Source: Escherichia coli | GTDB lineage: Bacteria > Pseudomonadota > Gammaproteobacteria > Enterobacterales > Enterobacteriaceae | Direction: 5' to 3' (one strand) | Length of the DNA stretch: 64,000 nt | NCBI RefSeq assembly: GCF_044647545.1 | Contig: NZ_CP172818.1 | Part shown: piece by piece, positions 27,372 to 40,352 of the stretch | Layout of the letters: each line of letters opens with the position of its first letter | How positions within the stretch are numbered: position 1 is the first letter of the stretch | Made by a program: the position numbers and the translations under genes | The notes under the pieces: generated by a model | The model's database searches: none | What the model saw: only the letters and a program-made list of their open reading frames with translations | What the model was told of the DNA's origin: nothing

Positions 27372-27734
27372 GGGGCTGATTCTGGATTCGACGGGATTTG
27401 CGAAACCCAAGGTGCATGCCGAGGGGCGGTTGGCCTCGTAAAAAGCCGCAAAAAATAGTCGCAAACGACGAAAACTACGCTTTAGCAGCTTAATAACCTG
27501 CTTAGAGCCCTCTCTCCCTAGCCTCCGCTCTTAGGACGGGGATCAAGAGAGGTCAAACCCAAAAGAGATCGCGTGGAAGCCCTGCCTGGGGTTGAAGCGT
27601 TAAAACTTAATCAGGCTAGTTTGTTAGTGGCGTGTCCGTCCGCAGCTGGCAAGCGAATGTAAAGACTGACTAAGCATGTAGTACCGAGGACGTAGGAATT
27701 TCGGACGCGGGTTCAACTCCCGCCAGCTCCACCA
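27372..27734 (+). ncRNA. ssrA: tmRNA (transfer-messenger RNA)
   Basis: Begins GGGGCTGATTCTGGATTCGACGGG, contains the tag-reading frame GCAAACGACGAAAACTACGCTTTAGCAGCTTAA (ANDENYALAA-stop), ends GGTTCAACTCCCGCCAGCTCCACCA. Confidence 0.97.
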
Positions 27735-30763: not shown

Positions 30764-32173
30764 ATGTTCAATGGTCGTCCTTTCCCTGTAGATGCATTTC
30801 CTAAAATTATCAGGAATGCAATTTATGAAGTGGAACAGCATACGCAGGCCCCTCAAGGTTTGATTGCTGCTTCTGCTCTTGGGGTAATTTCTCTTGCCTG
30901 TCAGAACCGGATTGATGTTTGCCGATTGAATAATCTACGTGGCCCGGTATCACTTTTCTTAATGACTCTGGCTGAATCAGGTGAACGTAAGAGTACGGTT
31001 GATAAACTGCTGATGAAGCCATTATATCAACTGGAAGAGGATTTATTTGAAAAATACACCCACGATCTTACCGCATGGAGAAATGATGAAGCAATTTTTA
31101 ATATTGAAAAAAAAGCACTGATGTCAAAACTTAAATCAGATATTCGACGTAACAAAGATCACTTGGCAACAAATGAAAGACTTAAAGAACTACTTACGAC
31201 AAACCCGAAAGCTCCAGTGAGATTCAAATTTTTATTTAACGATGCCACACCTGCAGCTATTAAAGCTCATCTCTGTGGGCACTGGCGATCAGTCGGCATC
31301 ATGTCTGATGAAGCTGGGATCATTTTTAATGGTTACACACTTAACGAGCTGCCGTTTATCAATAAGATGTGGGATGGTTCAATATTTACGGTGGAAAGGA
31401 AAAACGAGCCCGAGAAATTAATTAGAGATGCAAGAATAACACTGTCGCTGATGGTCCAGCCTAATGTTTTTAAGGGTTATATCGACAGGAAAGGAGATAT
31501 GGCAAAGGGGATTGGATTTTTTGCACGGTGCCTCATGTGCCAGCCTGCTTCAACACAAGGTAACAGAAAAATTTCCAACCCAATTTTTTCAAATGAACAT
31601 TTGCCGGTATTTCACCAACGTCTTATGGAAATTGTTAATGAGAGCATCATTAAAATTAATGAAAATAATCGCATCTGCCTCCGATTCTCTGCAGAAGCAG
31701 AAAGACATTGGATCGAATTCTACAACCAGGTCGAGTCAGAAATGAGAATGATTGGCCTTCTTTATGATTTTAAGGATTATGCTTCTAAAATGGCGGAGAA
31801 CATGGCGAGGCTTGCTGCCTTACTTCATTACTTCAGCGGTGATGGAGGCGATATATCTGTTACCGCAGTAAAAGCAGCAGTGGAGATAGTGGCTTGGTAT
31901 ATTGAAGAATACATCCGCTTGTTCTCTAAAAAAGAAGAGTTTTCTTTAGATGTTTCAGAAGCAGATGAGCTTTATTGTTGGATAAAAGATTACTGCACGC
32001 AAAAATTTTCTTCCTGCATCAAGAAAAATATTATCTTACAATTTGGGCCAAATAAATTTAGAAATCGTGACAAGGCAAATGAATTAATTAGAATCTTAAT
32101 TTCACAAAACAAAATATTTATATCTTCATGGGGTAAAACAAAAATAATAAACATAACTCATTGTGTTTTTTGA
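30764..32173 (+). CDS. yfjI: YfjI, DUF3987-type protein (primase-associated family in integrative elements), 469 aa
   Basis: ORF track; length and order match the K-12 island; family assignment by recollection. Confidence 0.85.
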   Translation: MFNGRPFPVDAFPKIIRNAIYEVEQHTQAPQGLIAASALGVISLACQNRIDVCRLNNLRGPVSLFLMTLAESGERKSTVDKLLMKPLYQLEEDLFEKYTHDLTAWRNDEAIFNIEKKALMSKLKSDIRRNKDHLATNERLKELLTTNPKAPVRFKFLFNDATPAAIKAHLCGHWRSVGIMSDEAGIIFNGYTLNELPFINKMWDGSIFTVERKNEPEKLIRDARITLSLMVQPNVFKGYIDRKGDMAKGIGFFARCLMCQPASTQGNRKISNPIFSNEHLPVFHQRLMEIVNESIIKINENNRICLRFSAEAERHWIEFYNQVESEMRMIGLLYDFKDYASKMAENMARLAALLHYFSGDGGDISVTAVKAAVEIVAWYIEEYIRLFSKKEEFSLDVSEADELYCWIKDYCTQKFSSCIKKNIILQFGPNKFRNRDKANELIRILISQNKIFISSWGKTKIINITHCVF

Positions 32174-32325
32174 TTTTAATGACAATCTAAAAGGACTTAA
32201 TTTAAGAGTAAAAACAAACTCTAAACCCAGTTCGGATAAAAGCTTGTCATCTTGATAGGTAATATATAGGTACATAGACACATCAGAACGATCACTTACT
32301 CCAATATCATTGGCCAGGATACTAT

Positions 32326-32952
32326 ATGACATACGATAGTGAATTCGGATCACATGTATCCCTATATCGGGATAGAATCAAACAGGTTATTGATGACTCC
32401 CTAAACGAACATCTTAACTCAATGATTCTACGTGTTGATCTGCATGACCCAATTGATACAGAAAATATGGATAACCCATTCTTTCAACCCAGGGTTGACT
32501 CTGGTGCTATATCTCGCTTTACCAGTGCGTTAAAAGCAAAGCTTAAACATGATAAGCATATTAAAACTCAACGGAAAGACTGGCCTGATAGTCGACATTC
32601 CACTTTACGTTACGCATGGGTCAGAGAATATACCAAAAATAGAAAGCGGCATTACCATTTGATACTGTGTTTCAATCAGGATGCTTATTATCATTTAGGT
32701 GATTACGACTTAAACCGTAACACGTTACGTACAATGATAACGACAGCTTGGTACAGTGCACTTGGCATCCCTATAGATAGCTCGGGGAAGTTAGTTAATT
32801 ACCCGCCAAATGGCAAATACCTTCTCAATCGTAAAAGGGACAACTTTGAGCAGACTTATAGCGATTTGATGAATAGGGTGGATTACATGACCAAAGTAAG
32901 GACTAAAATAGTCGGTGACGGAGACCGTAATTTCGGCTGCAGTCGCGGGTAA
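32326..32952 (+). CDS. yfjJ: YfjJ, YagK/YfjJ family (inovirus Gp2-like replication-initiator family), 208 aa
   Basis: ORF track; family assignment by recollection. Confidence 0.8.
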   Translation: MTYDSEFGSHVSLYRDRIKQVIDDSLNEHLNSMILRVDLHDPIDTENMDNPFFQPRVDSGAISRFTSALKAKLKHDKHIKTQRKDWPDSRHSTLRYAWVREYTKNRKRHYHLILCFNQDAYYHLGDYDLNRNTLRTMITTAWYSALGIPIDSSGKLVNYPPNGKYLLNRKRDNFEQTYSDLMNRVDYMTKVRTKIVGDGDRNFGCSRG

Positions 32953-33129
32953 TTTATTTTTTACAACAATGGCCTTTCTTATGGCTGGAAAGGCCTGATT
33001 TGTTTGTATTAAGATATCGGTAATCTTTTGATGGTTGGAAGCCCGTCCTGGTAGACGACCTAGCCTACCGAAGATGTGAGTTATTCAAAAATGTCGCTTT
33101 CCCGCGTTCCGTAGACAAACGTACCTAAA

Positions 33130-35319
33130 TCAATGTCGTCTAATACCGAGCGCGCGCCTGATAAACATCTGATCAACGTACCCAATCGATCTACTCCAAA
33201 TGTCCTGAGTATCCCGAAGATACTGGCTCAACTCATCCACATCAGCCTCGTCGGAAAATTCCAGCAAGTCTACCAGTCGGTGTAACGTCTGAATGGGAAT
33301 GCCAATCTCTTCTAAGGCATTGACACCTGGTGGTAGATGGAAACTTTCGAACGCCAATTTGACATGTGTGTAATCGACTTTGCTGCGTATACCACGCTTT
33401 ACAGCGTGGTGTTTAACTACATCCTCCATCAAGCTGAGCACCTTAGGTAGGGTATAGCCGAAGGTATTGGTTATGAGCTTCAAATCATTGTTGAGGGCAA
33501 TGGAAAGAGTACGTTTCTCCCCTTCAGAAATCCACTGTCGTGCATAATCGATCTGATTTTTCAGATATTCCGAATAACTTTCAGCACTTAAATAGCCGGC
33601 AAGTTTTGCGATCATGACATCCGTAGGCTTAACAGGGACCCCATTGCGACTGAACGTATGGGGAACCAGTCTGGCAATGATCTTTGCAAAGGTCTTGAGG
33701 AAGTTTGTCGCGGGAGTCCAGTGAAACACTAACGAGGAAAATTCGTTATCGTCCATCATCTCGAACATGCTTTGCAGCATTTCGAACTGCTCGACACGGA
33801 AGTACGAATGCTTCTTCACAAGGTCGATGGAAACACGGTCGTTTATGAAAACCTCATCAAAGCGATCCTGTGAAAACTCGGACAAGTGGTCTGGTTGAAC
33901 GCTGGCTAACAGGTTGATTGGGGTATCAATGCCCTGAATACCGAGCGGAATATCCACCTCTTGATTGAGATTGTCTTCCGGGATTTCCTCCAGGCAAAAG
34001 ATTTTGCCGACGAAGTGAACGCCCATGCGCCCGGCGCGACCTTTGATGTTCCCATGGGTGAATTTGTCAATGCTGCGAGTTCCATCGCGGTTGTCGTAGA
34101 TCACAACGTTCTTAGCGATAGTGTTGACTCCTTCAATGATCGTGGAGGTGCAGAGCAAAAAGCGCAGTTTTCCAGCATTGAATTGGTCGGCAGTGTATTG
34201 CTGCAGTGCCCTCGGTAGCGCGCCAAAATGCAAGCCAATACCGTTTCTAAGGGCGACTGTGTAATCCCAGTCGGCATCGAACTCTTCGCTGACCCAGTCG
34301 ACATGGGGATTCTCAGTCGGAGTGCCATGCCCAAGCCTGATCAGCTCGCGCGCCACCAGGCCCGCAACAGTTGGTGACTTGCAATAAATGATCGTTGCGT
34401 CGACACATGCGTGCGCGATTTCCCCCAGCGCTTTGAGCTTGGCTTTGTCGTCATTCGCTTTGATGCCGAACGTCTTAACATCTAGCGCGACTGTATTGAA
34501 GTCGGTAGAAACGAAAGTATGCGGATATCCAAGTTTTTCGAGACCGCGAATGCTGTTAACGAACGGTCCCGTCAGGTAAAACTGCCTGGAGACCTTAAGC
34601 AGTTTGCTTAACGCAATGTTGAGCTCGATGACTCGTTCGTCTTGATGATCAATGTCCCCGCTTTTCAGTTGTCGGAACGCCAACTTGTAAAACTCGTCAA
34701 TGACGAAGAGGTCAATGTCGACGATGTCGTCACGCTCGTTCACTCGCTCCTGAGTTAACACATAAACAGCCTGATCGGAATGGCACACTTGGGAACTGTG
34801 GTGGATGATCTGATATCGGTCACCGAATCGCTCTTGCAGTCGGCGACGGGTTTCGTCGGCAAGAGCCACGGTTGGAACAACCAGAACAAGCCGTTTCAAA
34901 GTTCCCATGCCGAGCAATGAATCGACGATTGCACTTTTGCCCATGCTTGTAGGTGCACTCAGCACCACGTTTTGACCAGACTTGAGCAGATCGAATATGT
35001 GGAACTGCATTGAGTGGAAAACATAACCATCCGAGAATGGCGTCCGGTATAGCTCAAGCACCCTCAGGTCATCCGGTGTCAGGCTGGTGAACTCCTTTTT
35101 GAGATACGGGAACAAACCTGATTTTCTCACCATATTTTTCAAAATTGTGGTGTGCTCGGAAAACCGCTCGCGCGAATCGAGAGCTCGCACGATCAAGTCC
35201 CGTCCCAAGTCATACGAAACAGGGTTAGACAACAGCTTGTTAACCGCAAACAGATAATTGAACGATGAGAAGTCCTCACCCTGCAGGCTATGTTTCGCCT
35301 GTTCATAGATCTCTGTCAT
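33130..35319 (-). CDS. yfjK: SF2 DEAD/DEAH-box helicase YfjK, 729 aa
   Basis: ORF track; Walker A APTSMGKS, motif II VIDEFY, motif VI GRAGRMG visible in the translation; start overlaps yfjL stop (ATGA). Confidence 0.92.
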   Translation of the reverse strand: MTEIYEQAKHSLQGEDFSSFNYLFAVNKLLSNPVSYDLGRDLIVRALDSRERFSEHTTILKNMVRKSGLFPYLKKEFTSLTPDDLRVLELYRTPFSDGYVFHSMQFHIFDLLKSGQNVVLSAPTSMGKSAIVDSLLGMGTLKRLVLVVPTVALADETRRRLQERFGDRYQIIHHSSQVCHSDQAVYVLTQERVNERDDIVDIDLFVIDEFYKLAFRQLKSGDIDHQDERVIELNIALSKLLKVSRQFYLTGPFVNSIRGLEKLGYPHTFVSTDFNTVALDVKTFGIKANDDKAKLKALGEIAHACVDATIIYCKSPTVAGLVARELIRLGHGTPTENPHVDWVSEEFDADWDYTVALRNGIGLHFGALPRALQQYTADQFNAGKLRFLLCTSTIIEGVNTIAKNVVIYDNRDGTRSIDKFTHGNIKGRAGRMGVHFVGKIFCLEEIPEDNLNQEVDIPLGIQGIDTPINLLASVQPDHLSEFSQDRFDEVFINDRVSIDLVKKHSYFRVEQFEMLQSMFEMMDDNEFSSLVFHWTPATNFLKTFAKIIARLVPHTFSRNGVPVKPTDVMIAKLAGYLSAESYSEYLKNQIDYARQWISEGEKRTLSIALNNDLKLITNTFGYTLPKVLSLMEDVVKHHAVKRGIRSKVDYTHVKLAFESFHLPPGVNALEEIGIPIQTLHRLVDLLEFSDEADVDELSQYLRDTQDIWSRSIGYVDQMFIRRALGIRRH

Positions 35320-36932
35320 ACGACCTCTCTCACCTTCTCATCAACTAATTGGGTTAACCGCTCAAGACTCGGGGCTGGATAAATGAATACGTGGATGCAA
35401 AGATTCGCAAACGGCGAATCCTCGATGAGGTCAGCCGCGAATTTTTCGAACAGCACCGCTGTTTCTTTCTCCAGGTCATCCTCGAACCCCGGCGTTTCAG
35501 GCTCGGTTAGTAGATTAGAGTCGTAGCCCACGAACAGAACAAACGTGAAACGATCGAGGTGAGCATCGAAAGGTTGGCTGCCATCAAGAATTTCGTCAAT
35601 GTCGTGGCGAAGCAGGTAGTTATCGTCTTTAATGTCGAGGATTTTTTTGCGCGCGGTATCGATGCAATCCGAAATGTCCTCGTACAACTGATCCCGTATC
35701 TCCGGCAATCTGACGGCAATGTTAATATCAGTCACCAACTCGCTGAAGCCAATCCAAAGCTGATCACCTTCTGGATCGCGGCGAACGATATGCACGTTTT
35801 CAAGAATTTTTTCGGCCCCTGCTTTTTCCACGTATAGCATGCAAGGAATAGGCTGGCTTTCGTGGTGCTGCCGGATCGTTGCGTGCAACAGCACTCGACC
35901 CAAAAATTCGCTGACGTCATGGAGCGATTTGAAGACGGAATTCTTTAGTCGTTCTCGCTTTTCAATGAATGTCAGTTTATGAATATCAGACATTTCTTTT
36001 GGTCGGAGAAAAACCTCATCCAACCATTGACAGACGTTATCCGCGATGTGCTTGTAGCGGTATTTCTTAAGTGAGTACTGCTGATGTAGAACCTGGCCTT
36101 TACGCTTAGCGCAGACCGAAGCCATAGGCGCTCTAAATGGCGTAAGGATGTGGGGTAAGTCCCGTTTGACGTAGATTTTGCGGCCTGACCGAGATTGGTC
36201 ATCTTCGACACGCTGCTTGAACCACTCAAGTAGGTCTGGTCGTAAGTAGGACTTGTCATCAGCACTGTGAATGCGTCGAGAATGCTCGCCCTTGCGCGTC
36301 ACAGTATCAAGGATGCGGCACCAAATGTCTTCGGCGACGGTTTCGGAACTGAGAATGACCCCATGTAGATCTTGGGAGGCCAGCCGTATGTTCTTGATCC
36401 CTAGAAGTTCCAGTTCGCGCAGGGATGAAAACACTTCCCATGTAGCCGCATCGATCCAATCTGAAACGCTTATACCTGAGTCTGTTAAAAAATTGTCTGT
36501 GCGTTTGTTGAGGTCATCGATGAGTTCCTGTCGACCTGGCTTATCTAGTCGGGCGTTTGGGCTGATCGTCAAGTACTCAAGGGTTTTGTTGACCTTTTCC
36601 TCTGTGACGATGGAGTACCTACGTCCAAGGGACAGGTCAGACTCACACTGCATTGATTTGTGCAAAATTGAACTGCAGGGGATCGTCTTTTTATCAGCAC
36701 CTTTTGAATTCTGAACGATGTCCGAAATGTTCCAACGTGTTTTGCCGGTGCTTTTTACCTGAACGAAGTCGATGTATCCATCAGATACAATGTCGATATC
36801 GTCTGTGACCTCGCAGCGCACACTGCGGATAGTCTTGTCACGAAGCATTCGGGTGACATGGTAAGCGGCTACGCAGTCCTGAAATAAGAAACCGTGCTTG
36901 GCGGCTACTCCGCCTGAATCGTTCGACTCCAT
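35316..36932 (-). CDS. yfjL: YfjL, 538 aa, putative nuclease-like N-terminal domain plus large C-terminal domain of unknown function
   Basis: ORF track; N-terminal GFLFQD...EVTDDIDIV...DFVQVKS resembles a PD-(D/E)xK/QxK core; translationally coupled to yfjK. Confidence 0.88.
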   Translation of the reverse strand: MESNDSGGVAAKHGFLFQDCVAAYHVTRMLRDKTIRSVRCEVTDDIDIVSDGYIDFVQVKSTGKTRWNISDIVQNSKGADKKTIPCSSILHKSMQCESDLSLGRRYSIVTEEKVNKTLEYLTISPNARLDKPGRQELIDDLNKRTDNFLTDSGISVSDWIDAATWEVFSSLRELELLGIKNIRLASQDLHGVILSSETVAEDIWCRILDTVTRKGEHSRRIHSADDKSYLRPDLLEWFKQRVEDDQSRSGRKIYVKRDLPHILTPFRAPMASVCAKRKGQVLHQQYSLKKYRYKHIADNVCQWLDEVFLRPKEMSDIHKLTFIEKRERLKNSVFKSLHDVSEFLGRVLLHATIRQHHESQPIPCMLYVEKAGAEKILENVHIVRRDPEGDQLWIGFSELVTDINIAVRLPEIRDQLYEDISDCIDTARKKILDIKDDNYLLRHDIDEILDGSQPFDAHLDRFTFVLFVGYDSNLLTEPETPGFEDDLEKETAVLFEKFAADLIEDSPFANLCIHVFIYPAPSLERLTQLVDEKVREVV

Positions 36933-37190
36933 TTAGACATCCGTGACAATTTTGCGAAAATTAAGGAGATGTTATGACACAGTCCAATCGGATCACTGCA
37001 TCATCACCAGTGATCTAAATACTTCACAGCCATTCTCGGTCGCAGGTATCAAGCTTTTCAGGATTCCACAAATATTGTAACCCTGACGTCTAATTTGGTT
37101 ATATAACATACTGCCCCAACTAACGTAAGGTAGGCACAGCCTTAATCAAGGTTTTGGTTTTCAAATAGTTCAGAGCTGAGACCGCCAACC

Positions 37191-37242
37191 GCACTATGGC
37201 ACTATGGCACTATGGCACTATGGCACTATGGCACTATGGCAC
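37191..37242. repeat. Octanucleotide tandem repeat (GCACTATG) x6.5 flanked by ACCGCCA
   Basis: Read directly: gcactatg repeated six times plus gcac; 7-bp ACCGCCA on both sides; lies between yfjM stop and yfjL start. Confidence 0.95.
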
Positions 37243-37291
37243 CGCCAGCGATTGTAATCACACTTGATATTATAAAACACAGTTGCACGCA

Positions 37292-37555
37292 TTATTTCCT
37301 GGTTGGTAGGGTCATATCTCGATGCTCTTTGAGCAATGTCAACATCGCGTGTTCATGGCTTTCTATATTGTTGATGCCTTGCCCATCCGGACCCCACTCC
37401 TTATAGCTCATCATGATGGCTTGTTTTGGGCTCTCTGCTCGTTCTGTTTCGACGTAGAATTTTTTCTTGTCTGCTGGCGAATAATTACTAAGTATCGAGT
37501 TGCTGCTTGGTGAGATCAGGAAGAGGTTACCGAAACGATGGACATCATCCCCCAT
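37292..37555 (-). CDS. yfjM: Hypothetical protein YfjM, 87 aa
   Basis: ORF track; divergent from rnlA. Confidence 0.7.
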
Positions 37556-37696
37556 TTTGTGGACTGCCCCCCCGGTAGACGATCCTGCCCTATAGTTGGA
37601 GTGCCCCCTATTCAGGTGGCTAAATTTAGCAAATCAATACACTTCAGGGGGGTATTATTGTAGAGTTTCCCCATATGTTTCTATGGGATCCAGGAA

Positions 37697-38770
37697 ATGA
37701 CAATCAGGAGTTACAAAAACTTAAATCTGGTCAGGGCAAATATCGAGACTGAATCCAGACAATTCATTGAAAATAAAAACTATTCAATCCAATCAATTGG
37801 TCCTATGCCAGGGTCAAGGGCTGGGCTTCGGGTCGTATTTACCAGACCAGGGGTTAACTTGGCAACTGTGGACATTTTTTATAACGGGGACGGTTCGACT
37901 ACAATTCAATATCTCACTGGAGCCAATCGTTCTCTGGGCCAAGAGTTAGCGGATCATCTTTTTGAAACCATCAATCCTGCTGAATTTGAGCAGGTAAATA
38001 TGGTACTGCAAGGATTTGTAGAGACAAGCGTTCTACCTGTACTTGAGCTATCAGCAGATGAATCGCATATAGAGTTCAGAGAACACTCTCGTAACGCTCA
38101 TACCGTAGTGTGGAAAATTATTTCCACCAGCTATCAGGACGAATTGACTGTGAGCCTGCATATCACAACAGGTAAGCTCCAGATTCAGGGCCGACCGCTG
38201 TCATGTTACAGAGTTTTCACGTTTAACTTGGCAGCCCTGCTTGATTTACAGGGTTTGGAGAAAGTGCTAATCCGCCAGGAGGATGGTAAAGCTAATATTG
38301 TTCAACAGGAGGTTGCCCGCACTTACTTGCAGACTGTAATGGCCGATGCTTACCCGCATCTCCACGTGACTGCCGAAAAATTGCTCGTTTCAGGGCTATG
38401 TGTTAAACTCGCCGCCCCTGATTTGCCTGACTACTGTATGTTACTTTATCCTGAACTACGCACCATTGAAGGTGTCTTAAAAAGTAAGATGAGTGGGTTA
38501 GGCATGCCAGTACAGCAGCCGGCAGGTTTTGGAACTTACTTTGATAAACCTGCTGCTCATTACATTCTGAAACCGCAATTTGCAGCTACTCTTAGACCGG
38601 AACAGATTAACATCATCAGCACAGCCTATACTTTTTTTAATGTGGAACGTCATTCTCTGTTCCACATGGAAACTGTGGTCGATGCCAGCCGTATGATTTC
38701 TGATATGGCCCGGTTGATGGGTAAAGCCACTAGAGCGTGGGGAATAATCAAGGACTTATATATTGTTTGA
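37697..38770 (+). CDS. rnlA: RnlA toxin (RNase LS endoribonuclease), 357 aa
   Basis: ORF track; translation MTIRSYKNLNLVRANIETESRQFIENKNY... recognised as RnlA. Confidence 0.92.
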   Translation: MTIRSYKNLNLVRANIETESRQFIENKNYSIQSIGPMPGSRAGLRVVFTRPGVNLATVDIFYNGDGSTTIQYLTGANRSLGQELADHLFETINPAEFEQVNMVLQGFVETSVLPVLELSADESHIEFREHSRNAHTVVWKIISTSYQDELTVSLHITTGKLQIQGRPLSCYRVFTFNLAALLDLQGLEKVLIRQEDGKANIVQQEVARTYLQTVMADAYPHLHVTAEKLLVSGLCVKLAAPDLPDYCMLLYPELRTIEGVLKSKMSGLGMPVQQPAGFGTYFDKPAAHYILKPQFAATLRPEQINIISTAYTFFNVERHSLFHMETVVDASRMISDMARLMGKATRAWGIIKDLYIV

Positions 38771-39134: not shown

Positions 39135-39488
39135 AACTCTTCTTTCTAAACGAACCAGTATAGAATTCGCCCTTTTGGCATGATATTAACTTGTCCAATA
39201 TGATCAAATAGCATTAACCCCCCCTCACAACGTCCTGCATAGGGAACACGTTTTCCCCTGTGCACCCACGACTAAATTTCCCCCCCTTTAAACTTCTCAA
39301 TAATGTCACCAATTTTCTGGAAATCCTATGATGCCTTTCCCGGTAAATGGTGCTGTGAGTTCAGAAAGATTCTGCAATCTATGTGCATTGAAAAAATCTT
39401 CAGATAGATATCATTCTCCTGAACAATCCGATGAACGGCAGAACCTCGCGGTTCTGCCGTTTTTGTTTTACTTTTCAGAGGAGTGGTG

Positions 39489-40352
39489 ATGAAAAATTTT
39501 GAAGTTCTGCAGCCACTACAGAACTCCCTTTCCGGTCTACCGCTATGGGTATCTGAACGTATATTGCAGCAGATAAATCAGTTAACCCACTACGAGCCAG
39601 TGATCGGCATCATGGGTAAAACTGGGGCGGGAAAGAGTAGCCTTTGCAATGCCCTGTTTGCCGGTGAAGTATCGCCGGTCAGCGATGTAGCGGCCTGTAC
39701 ACGTGATCCTTTACGCTTTCGCCTGCAGATTGGAGAACACTTTATGACCATCGTGGATCTGCCCGGCGTGGGCGAAAGTGGCGTTCGCGATACCGAGTAT
39801 GCTGCGCTGTACCGCGAACAACTTCCCCGGCTCGACCTGATTCTGTGGCTGATTAAGGCTGATGATCGGGCACTGGCGACTGATGAGCATTTTTACCGTC
39901 AGGTGATTGGCGAAGCATACCGGCATAAGATGCTGTTTGTTATCAGCCAGTCAGACAAAGCTGAACCCACCAGCGGTGGAAATATCCTTTCCACAGAGCA
40001 GAAACAAAATATCAGCCGCAAAATCTGCCTGCTGCATGAGCTATTCCAGCCCGTGCATCCGGTGTGTGCCGTGTCGGTTCGCCTGCAGTGGGGACTAAGG
40101 GTGATGGCAGAGCGGATGATTAAGTGTCTGCCGCGTGAGGCCAGCAGCCCGGTAGTAGCGCTACTGCAACATCCCTTTCGAACAACGGTAGCCCGGGAGC
40201 AGGCACGTGACGATTTCGGTGAAACCGTAGGTGCCATACTCGATACGGTAAGCACCTTTCCCCTTATTCCCGCCCCGGTGCGGACCATTATTCAGGCCGT
40301 GCGTTCCTCGGTGGTGTCAGTGGCCCGCGCTGTCTGGGATTTCTTCTTCTGA
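39489..40352 (+). CDS. yfjP: YfjP, prophage P-loop GTPase (YeeP/YkfA family), 287 aa
   Basis: ORF 39483-40352; ATG at 39489 five nt after GAGGAG; G1 motif GKTGAGKSS, DLPG G3 motif. Confidence 0.88.
   Translation: MKNFEVLQPLQNSLSGLPLWVSERILQQINQLTHYEPVIGIMGKTGAGKSSLCNALFAGEVSPVSDVAACTRDPLRFRLQIGEHFMTIVDLPGVGESGVRDTEYAALYREQLPRLDLILWLIKADDRALATDEHFYRQVIGEAYRHKMLFVISQSDKAEPTSGGNILSTEQKQNISRKICLLHELFQPVHPVCAVSVRLQWGLRVMAERMIKCLPREASSPVVALLQHPFRTTVAREQARDDFGETVGAILDTVSTFPLIPAPVRTIIQAVRSSVVSVARAVWDFFF

Follow-up and report, generated by a model that had tools for sequence, protein, structure and literature searches.

The two overlapping minus-strand genes found in the window (the whole 64,000-nt stretch of Escherichia coli contig NZ_CP172818.1 that was analysed) are, with very little doubt, the AbpAB pair of E. 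coli K-12, alias Hachiman type I-B, carried as cargo by the cryptic prophage CP4-57. Nucleotide identity to the annotated abpA and abpB genes of E. coli K-12 genomes is 100% over the region, and a search of the PDB returned exact matches for both proteins, AbpA to chain A and AbpB to chain B of entry 8ZUE. The finding is correct but not new: RefSeq already carries the gene names, PADLOC detects the pair, and both the structure (8ZUE) and the biochemistry are published. Sources on AbpAB are Yasui et al. 2014 (as cited in PMC12278908), Sasaki et al. 2023 (PMC10732053) and Cui et al. 2025 (PMC11914072). The core of the locus is as follows:

35316..36932, minus strand: abpA (yfjL, hamA), 538-aa effector nuclease (ORF; RefSeq abpA and PDB 8ZUE chain A, each 100% identical; PADLOC HamA1)
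33130..35319, minus strand: abpB (yfjK, hamB), 729-aa SF2 (Ski2-like) helicase/ATPase (ORF; identical to PDB 8ZUE chain B; PADLOC HamB1)
35316..35319, minus strand: ATGA, overlap of the abpA stop and the abpB start (sequence; also in PMC11914072)

On the minus strand the junction reads GTCGT ATGA CAGAG, so that the TGA of abpA and the ATG of abpB share 4 nt (35316-35319), and a purine-rich GAGAGAGG lies directly 5' of it. We infer from this arrangement that the genes are translationally coupled via the ATGA, and the overlap would then keep production of the AbpA and AbpB subunits in step. The same gene pair is found, with a 4-nt overlap, in a homologue from Serratia fonticola (47% identity; positions 7617-7620 of L004) and, with a 4-nt gap, in a homologue from a P2-like prophage (35% identity); a 'distant' blastn search in E. 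coli returned no diverged abpAB alleles. Given the 100% identity to K-12, the full-length profile matches described below and the recurrence of the pair in distant homologues, abpA and abpB are not a chance pair of open reading frames. The annotated neighbours place the locus in CP4-57, beside rnlAB; an NCBIfam search with yfjM, yfjI, yfjJ, rnlA and rnlB gave no matches. The initial annotation, made from the raw sequence, had described the 4-nt overlap and the proximity to rnlAB, and had given the names abpA/abpB for a K-12 pair with anti-phage activity. The ORFs and the ATGA, the K-12 identity and CP4-57 annotation, and the published phage assays (PMC10732053, PMC11914072) bear it out on all these points.

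Two flanking elements may govern transcription of the pair:

37063..37092, minus strand: reported sigma-70 constitutive promoter of yfjLK, TAGACG-18-TGGAAT (genomic SELEX, PMC3946193; exact pattern match)
32971..32995, no strand assigned: GC-rich hairpin between the convergent yfjJ and abpB (terminator scan match on the plus strand)

The promoter sequence was reported from genomic SELEX for the yfjM-yfjL spacer (PMC3946193); its exact match is unique in the window and lies about 130 nt upstream of the abpA ATG. A consensus promoter scan of the yfjM-abpA interval found no minus-strand promoter, and so missed the SELEX promoter too. Read on the minus strand, the hairpin is followed by ATTGTTGT, and judging from this sequence it is likely to act as a bidirectional terminator. 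A GCACTATG repeat is also present upstream of abpAB, with a copy number of 6.5 versus 10.5.

AbpA matches the PADLOC HamA1 model over its full length (E 2.8e-266) and contains two domains:

36288..36917, minus strand: Cap4-type PD-(D/E)xK dsDNA endonuclease domain (DUF4297), AbpA residues 6-215 (Pfam PF14130, E 3.1e-54)
35376..36053, minus strand: HamA/DUF1837 domain, a catalytically dead PD-(D/E)xK fold, AbpA residues 294-519 (Pfam PF08878, E 5.9e-41)

Both Pfam domains are present in 96 of the 101 matches listed, the other five being shorter proteins with one domain each. The N-terminal motifs lie at residues 14-19 (GFLFQD), 41-49 (EVTDDIDIV, with D45) and 55-61 (DFVQVKS, with Q58 and K60). 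None of D45, Q58 and K60 varies among 23 homologues, the most distant of which share 34% identity, and their replacement by alanine abolishes defence and nuclease activity (PMC10732053, PMC11914072). The nuclease core that had been proposed from motif spacing is thus a genuine PD-(D/E)xK site.

The second domain carries no such site. In an alignment of AbpA-type and stand-alone HamAs, the latter collected by searching 1.84 billion representatives with a profile, the columns of the canonical D...ExK motif are occupied in AbpA by E378...F396-S397-E398. Of 73 stand-alone HamAs, 66 retain the complete motif; it is gone from 40 of the 42 HamAs that are extended at the N terminus by 150 aa or more. 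On the strength of this alignment, the C-terminal DUF1837 of AbpA is a pseudo-nuclease, which confirms the published conclusion independently. Truncation and interface mutants indicate that it serves as a scaffold, docking on the N-terminal helical/TPR domain of AbpB (PMC11914072). Searches of the PDB with the AbpA DUF1837 alone, or with a 23-sequence AbpA profile, did not reach type I-A HamA (8VX9 chain A) at E <= 10; both returned only 8ZUE and chance ferritin matches. The roughly 400 residues of YfjL in which the initial annotation recognised no motif correspond to the rest of the Cap4 domain and to the inactive DUF1837 scaffold that binds AbpB.

AbpB matches the PADLOC HamB1 model (E 4.2e-220), and its catalytic core is covered by two Pfam domains:

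34021..35010, minus strand: RecA1/RecA2 helicase core, AbpB residues 104-433 (Pfam DEAD and Helicase_C)

Walker A (APTSMGKS, residues 122-129, with K128), motif Ia (VVPTVALADE, 147-156), the DExx motif (VIDEFY, 206-211, with D208 and E209) and motif VI (GRAGRMG, 427-433) are all present, and the K128A, D208A and E209A mutations abolish defence (PMC10732053). The profile searches (Pfam, PADLOC) that had been proposed as a check thus found a nuclease in one protein and a helicase in the other, the latter backed by PDB matches, and every motif quoted for either protein was located in the translations.

Is this helicase an RNA enzyme? Yao et al. 2013 (PMC3636086), who saw group II intron retrohoming and reporter expression rise upon yfjK/yfjL insertion, proposed that RNA is degraded in concert with RNase LS from the adjacent rnlA, and AbpAB could be imagined as a primarily RNA-targeting system in which a DEAD-box RNA helicase feeds RNA to the nuclease. 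RNA helicases are indeed among the structural neighbours of AbpB (PMC10732053), and Mtr4 and Ski2 among its PDB sequence matches. However, sequence comparison ranks the DNA helicases Pol-theta and Hel308 as its closest helicases in the PDB, purified AbpAB degrades DNA, and a 21-nt ssRNA does not stimulate its ATPase (PMC11914072). Moreover, AbpAB acts against the ssDNA phage phiX174 and does not protect cells from the RNA phage Q-beta (PMC10732053). We consider RNA targeting very improbable.

AbpAB is better described as a DNA-degrading complex. In the cryo-EM structure (8ZUE, PMC11914072), AbpA and AbpB form a 1:1 heterodimer, in which DUF1837 sits on the N-terminal helical/TPR domain of AbpB and Cap4 touches RecA1. 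Neither cutting by AbpA nor unwinding by AbpB takes place without the partner subunit; the complex unwinds DNA, hydrolyses ATP under stimulation by short dsDNA but not ssDNA, and degrades DNA without specificity, be it single- or double-stranded, plasmid, phage or host, provided that a divalent metal and AbpA D45/K60 are present (PMC11914072). A homologue, labelled PaAbpAB by its authors, likewise forms a 1:1 complex with NTPase-dependent cleavage (bioRxiv 10.1101/2025.07.10.664194). Under its native promoter, AbpAB defends against many phages of a 50-phage panel by abortive infection (PMC11914072); the effect of the chromosomal copy on T4 plating is negligible (PMC10732053).

In cells the system is triggered by ssDNA-bound T4 Gp32 or by interrupted DNA replication or repair, and is otherwise silent; activating damage includes mitomycin C, bleomycin, norfloxacin and loss of recB or recC (PMC10732053). 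Once activated, AbpAB halts growth and kills the cell, the outcome known as abortive infection. The AbpB helicase may sense intermediates, of DNA or of DNA with protein, that are abnormal, and its movement, powered by ATP, would then license the active site of Cap4 by way of DUF1837 as an adaptor. The statement in the initial annotation that the trigger, the mechanism and the role of the YfjL C-terminal domain were unsettled is out of date, since publications now cover structure, biochemistry and triggers alike. Views on precisely what the molecular trigger is nevertheless differ: in vitro, the ATPase of type I-B responds to dsDNA (PMC11914072), type I-A is set off by 3' ssDNA ends (PMC12278908), and the in vivo data on AbpAB point to SSB-ssDNA or damage intermediates (PMC10732053). 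The purified complex, moreover, cuts DNA without any added trigger (PMC11914072), although in cells AbpAB is silent until activated.

A separate line of work bears on the cost of such a system. The gene yfjK, which is abpB, is one of three loci that account for evolved extreme resistance to ionizing radiation in E. coli (Byrne et al. 2014, PMC3939492): survival after irradiation rises 13-fold upon deletion of yfjK, and about 100-fold with the motif Ia change A151D (residue 152 in the AbpB numbering used here). These authors treated yfjK as a 'DNA metabolism gene', and its mutations, grouped with those of recA and dnaB, do strongly raise radiation resistance; it might accordingly be read as a host repair or replication helicase outside immunity. 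Yet a gain in survival upon deletion fits the loss of a damage-triggered suicide nuclease and not that of a repair enzyme; moreover, yfjK is prophage-borne, always paired with a nuclease, and present in no more than 362 of the 5426 complete genomes of E. coli. A repair helicase seems to us very improbable. We think it more likely than not that AbpAB is physiologically active in its native single copy on the chromosome, as a self-destruct nuclease set off by DNA damage. If so, this would explain why yfjK is a radiation-resistance locus, and could also account for the increased group II intron retrohoming and plasmid reporter expression seen with yfjK/yfjL insertions (Yao et al. 2013, PMC3636086). 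That A151D protects more than deletion hints at an additional protective effect of a DNA-binding-defective complex. The radiation study is not mentioned in the main AbpAB/Hachiman papers (PMC11914072, PMC10732053, PMC12278908), and no paper in the library searched has the two gene names together. This apparently unconnected literature suggests that AbpAB immunity may cost measurable DNA-damage survival even at native expression.

With regard to classification, two papers place AbpAB within Hachiman as a variant, type I-B (PMC12278908, PMC11914072); Sasaki et al., at an identity of about 16% to Hachiman, called it 'not a direct equivalent' (PMC10732053). The pair had been proposed to be Hachiman-like; membership of the family stands, on the PADLOC HamA1/HamB1 and Pfam HamA matches, and the word 'like' proved too weak. 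AbpA carries the DUF1837/HamA domain (PF08878), and is adjoined by a co-oriented SF2 (Ski2-like) HamB with intact Walker A, DExx and motif VI. As in type I-B, AbpA combines an N-terminal Cap4/DUF4297 D...(E/Q)xK nuclease with an inactive DUF1837; because the catalytic D...ExK of DUF1837 is absent (E378/F396/E398), it is not of type I-A.

Could AbpAB nevertheless work exactly as described for type I-A by Tuck et al., with HamB loading on a free 3' ssDNA end, ratcheting, and releasing HamA as a free nuclease? Type I-A (E. coli ECOR31 HamAB, PDB 8VX9; E. coli DEC14B) is also a two-gene hamA-hamB operon, in which DUF1837 binds the N-terminal helical domain of an SF2 Ski2-like helicase, the 1:1 complex degrades DNA non-specifically, defence is by abortive infection, and DNA damage activates the system; in both types the nuclease is silent without its helicase. 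However, AbpA alone is inactive and it is the complex that is the active nuclease in vitro; its ATPase is reported to respond to dsDNA, against 3' ssDNA for type I-A, and nuclease-site mutations leave it unaffected, unlike in type I-A (PMC11914072). The catalytic centre also lies in another domain: type I-A HamA, of about 280 aa, consists of DUF1837 only, with an active D...ExK, whereas AbpA has lost the ExK (F396/E398) and cuts with its extra N-terminal Cap4 nuclease. Finally, AbpB has 729 aa against 1174 aa for ECOR31 HamB, is alignable with it by phmmer only over residues 353-440 (E 1e-7), and reportedly lacks the WH and OB domains (PMC11914072). A mechanism identical to that of type I-A thus appears unlikely.

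Resemblances extend beyond Hachiman. Nhi and Hna share the logic of a nuclease joined to a helicase and activation by phage single-strand-binding proteins, but are single polypeptides, with no sequence relationship to AbpAB detected. Lamassu LmuA and HerA-DUF4297 have in common with AbpAB a DUF4297/Cap4-type effector and an NTPase partner. In HerA-DUF4297 this partner is a HerA hexamer instead of an SF2 helicase. PADLOC LmuA models match AbpA, mainly over DUF4297, down to E 5.8e-14, far below the HamA models; Lamassu was rejected, as the partner is an SF2 helicase and not an SMC-like LmuB, and the best full-length matches are HamA models. Cap4 of CBASS (PF14130/DUF4297; PDB 6WAN) has the same nuclease fold, its D50/E67/K69 corresponding to AbpA D45/Q58/K60, but AbpA is activated through its partner helicase and not by a cyclic oligonucleotide. 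CBASS itself was rejected, since Pfam finds no SAVED domain in AbpA and no CD-NTase is among the annotated neighbours. The locus is of value as a positive control: working from raw sequence, a reader identified both the defence operon and its catalytic motifs correctly. In DNA, proteins, position in CP4-57 and 4-nt overlap the locus is identical to AbpAB of E. coli K-12, and is the studied locus itself.

The two genes form an overlapping pair on the minus strand; features of the genes and their surroundings are as follows.

27372-27734, tmRNA gene
33130..35319, minus strand, abpB (yfjK), open reading frame of 729 aa
35316..36932, minus strand, abpA (yfjL), open reading frame of 538 aa
AbpA residues 6-215, Cap4_nuclease domain, PF14130 (Pfam E 3e-54)
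AbpA residues 294-519, HamA domain, PF08878/DUF1837 (Pfam E 6e-41)
37292-37555, minus strand, yfjM, 87 aa, upstream of abpA

Over 3803 nt, the DNA matches with 100% identity the genes annotated in E. coli K-12 and its derivatives as abpB ('DEAD/DEAH box helicase') and abpA ('anti-bacteriophage protein AbpA'), so that the gene names given in the initial annotation prove correct, and the two proteins match exactly chains A and B of PDB 8ZUE ('Anti-bacteriophage protein A/B'). The ORF listing and the junction sequence (GTCGT-ATGA-CAGAG on the minus strand) agree with the 4-nt ATGA overlap described for the pair: the TGA stop of abpA and the ATG start of abpB have 35316-35319 in common, directly preceded by the purine-rich GAGAGAGG. 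All motifs quoted at that time were also located in the translations, namely GFLFQD (14-19), EVTDDIDIV (41-49) and DFVQVKS (55-61) in AbpA, and APTSMGKS (122-129), VIDEFY (206-211) and GRAGRMG (427-433) in AbpB.

The profile searches proposed as a check found Hachiman components. With PADLOC, AbpA matches HamA1 over its full length (E 2.8e-266) and AbpB matches HamB1 (E 4.2e-220), while LmuA matches to AbpA are weaker and lie mainly over the N-terminal nuclease domain. Pfam finds the Cap4_nuclease and HamA domains in AbpA, and AbpB carries DEAD and Helicase_C domains. After 8ZUE, the solved helicases nearest to AbpB by sequence are Pol-theta helicase domains, then ECOR31 HamB (8VX9_B, E 1e-7, residues 353-440), Hel308, Mtr4 and Ski2.

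Much is published on this system, and the checks first proposed have already been made by others: profile matches, a comparison with the Cap4 fold, plating assays with expression from its own promoter, mutants of the Walker A and nuclease sites, and phage escape mutants. Cloned with its native promoter, the operon acts through abortive infection and gives 10- to 10,000-fold protection against many members of a panel of 50 phages, and the heterodimer, there called HamAB, was solved at 3.1 A (Cui et al. 2025, PMC11914072). AbpA 1-252 is a Cap4-like PD-(D/E)xK nuclease (D45/Q58/K60), and AbpA 253-538 a DUF1837 fold without catalytic residues, which AbpA needs for its contact with AbpB at the TPR-like N-terminal domain of the latter (PMC11914072). 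AbpA alone has no nuclease activity and AbpB alone no helicase activity; the complex unwinds DNA, hydrolyses ATP about ten times more actively, with 52-bp dsDNA as a stimulus, and degrades linear, plasmid, single-stranded, phage and host DNA in dependence on a divalent metal (Mg, Co or Zn) (PMC11914072). Defence is lost in AbpA Q58A and K60A and in AbpB K128A, D208A and E209A (Sasaki et al. 2023, PMC10732053). In the same study, T4 Gp32 triggered toxicity only when able to bind ssDNA, activation without phage followed mitomycin C, norfloxacin, bleomycin or loss of recB or recC, and T4 escaped through a gene 41 mutation or the gene 32 mutant tsP7 (PMC10732053). A homologue labelled PaAbpAB likewise forms a 1:1 complex with NTPase-dependent cleavage (2025 preprint, bioRxiv 10.1101/2025.07.10.664194).

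Tuck et al. (2024, PMC12278908) proposed AbpAB as a Hachiman variant and called its retention of a dead HamA nuclease 'enigmatic'. A profile built from 15 DUF1837 domains retrieved 223 proteins at E <= 1e-3 from 1.84 billion representatives, and 17 stand-alone HamAs, each about 280 aa long, were aligned with AbpA-type domains. In this alignment LENVH ... LWIGFSEL of AbpA falls under the canonical GFDxVH ... LWLGExKFY, which places E378, F396 and E398 in the D/E/K columns. Among the 150 best representatives, 66 of the 73 stand-alone HamAs have a complete D...ExK, whereas 40 of the 42 proteins extended at the N-terminus by 150 aa or more lack it; this reproduces, from independent data, the published split between type I-A and types I-B/C/D. 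H350, R354, H381, W393 and G395 are conserved both in AbpA-type domains and in catalytically active stand-alone HamAs (AbpA residues 350-395 correspond to about 35748-35885 of the window), and the first catalytic position is still acidic in AbpA (E378). The five conserved residues are more likely determinants of the fold or of an interface than catalytic residues. Alternatively, together with E378, they could reflect some remaining capacity to bind DNA or metal.

In the best-supported account, it is known from the literature that a single transcript encodes AbpA and AbpB and that the two proteins join 1:1, with DUF1837 as the adaptor. AbpB is then an ATPase acting on DNA, and the complex cleaves DNA without specificity at its Cap4 site (D45/Q58/K60); in cells, Gp32-ssDNA or DNA damage activates AbpAB and leads to abortive infection. 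To this we would add that the ATGA overlap may couple translation of the two proteins, that AbpB would be the sensor, its conformational cycle licensing the Cap4 domain, and that the dead DUF1837 domain might insulate the two catalytic centres. The inactivity of AbpA alone argues against a release of AbpA of the kind proposed for type I-A.

Earlier genetics also bears on the native copy. [quoted passage not shown] 2014, PMC3939492). The residue numbers of that study are those of full AbpB minus one, so that A151D is AbpB A152D, in motif Ia (VVPTVALADE). These data fit a DNA-damage-triggered suicide nuclease working at native copy number: on a simple reading, single-copy AbpAB kills DNA-damaged cells and its loss improves survival. 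If true, this would also show that chromosomal AbpAB is active, despite the fact that at this copy number T4 plating is barely changed (PMC10732053). The three main AbpAB/Hachiman papers mention neither yfjK, Byrne nor ionizing radiation, and within an incomplete coverage of the literature we found no paper pairing yfjK with abpB, or Hachiman with 'radiation resistance'. The link is a literature synthesis rather than a new system. A further native-copy phenotype of the abpB-abpA-rnlA locus (33130-38770) comes from a transposon screen: all five insertions that made group II introns retrohome more and raised the expression of a reporter lay in rnlA, yfjK or yfjL, an effect then put down to RNA degradation (Yao et al. 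2013, PMC3636086).

In the K-12 record, abpAB lies in an island integrated beside ssrA, in the order ssrA, intA, yfjH, alpA, yfjI, yfjJ, abpB, abpA, yfjM, rnlA, rnlB, yfjP, onward. The island is prophage CP4-57 (PMC11914072, PMC3636086), and the initial placement of the pair beside rnlAB in a prophage thus holds. RefSeq labels yfjM a 'GmrSD restriction endonuclease domain-containing protein', and PADLOC matches it weakly (E about 4e-4) to SspE and Orf5, at their C-terminal ends; it resembles what is left of the C-terminal part of a restriction nuclease of the GmrSD/SspE type (DUF1524 HNH), and is probably a relic of an older defence gene at this hotspot. Downstream of rnlAB, the yfjP GTPase (39483-40352, plus strand) has two weak PADLOC matches, LeoBC at E 3e-6 and LeoA at E 1e-3.

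The sigma-70 promoter of yfjLK reported by genomic SELEX, TAGACG-18-TGGAAT (PMC3946193), has a unique match in the window, at 37063-37092 on the minus strand, and yfjJ and abpB, which converge, are separated by a spacer with a GC-rich hairpin (32971-32995). Between the yfjM stop (37292) and the abpA start (36932), some 100 nt further upstream than the yfjLK promoter, the octamer GCACTATG is perfectly repeated 6.5 times in tandem (37191-37242). Its copy number rarely varies across K-12-lineage genomes: there are 10.5 copies in strain MB06021 (locus L002, 6428-6511), NZ_CP195093.1 is 8 bp longer, and the yfjM-abpA spacer is at least 99% identical in 358 of 362 genomes.

These 362 genomes, among 5426 complete E. 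coli genomes, are those that carry abpAB, every copy being at least 99% identical; at blastn sensitivity, no diverged allele was found in the 5426. Sampled carriers with informative names in the hit tables are all K-12 derivatives or laboratory strains. The G+C content of abpAB is 49%, against 36-42% in the adjacent yfjI/yfjJ region (30764-32952), which suggests a separately acquired module, and a 96.7%-identical AbpA is found on large plasmids of Enterobacter asburiae and Citrobacter freundii. Taken together, G+C content, distribution in E. coli and plasmid-borne AbpA suggest that the pair is a cargo module whose transfer was recent. In 50,697 phage records the only match to AbpA is a weak one, at 24% identity, from Klebsiella phage Kp4865-2. 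AbpA residues 343-538 are also 95% identical to a fragment of HM037272.1 (36163-36750), labelled as a Bacillus thuringiensis CT-43 plasmid; such a fragment is unexpected in a Firmicute, and the record may be chimeric or contaminated.

A word-indexed search listed 101 relatives of AbpA, from 90% to about 35% identical, in Providencia, Aeromonas, Pseudomonas, Shewanella, Serratia, Salmonella and others. Both Pfam domains, Cap4 and HamA, are present in 96; the other five are shorter and have one each. When 23 of the relatives are aligned, E41, D44, D45, D47, Q58 and K60 do not vary. The gene arrangement recurs: in Serratia fonticola, the gene of a homologue at 47% identity again overlaps that of a 729-aa helicase by 4 nt, and a 35%-identity homologue (locus L003, 6001-9817) is paired with a 722-aa helicase across a 4-nt gap. 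The L003 pair lies within a P2-like prophage, directly downstream of the Phage_GPA replication gene and with a CI-repressor gene also adjoining, a site known as a variable defence hotspot of P2-like phages.

Compared with known systems, AbpAB has only the nuclease fold in common with CBASS Cap4 and with Lamassu LmuA, and it lacks the one defining feature of Hachiman type I-A, an active ExK in DUF1837. In contrast, it has the features of Hachiman type I-B; the locus is no new system but the already known type example of AbpAB, the other name of that type.
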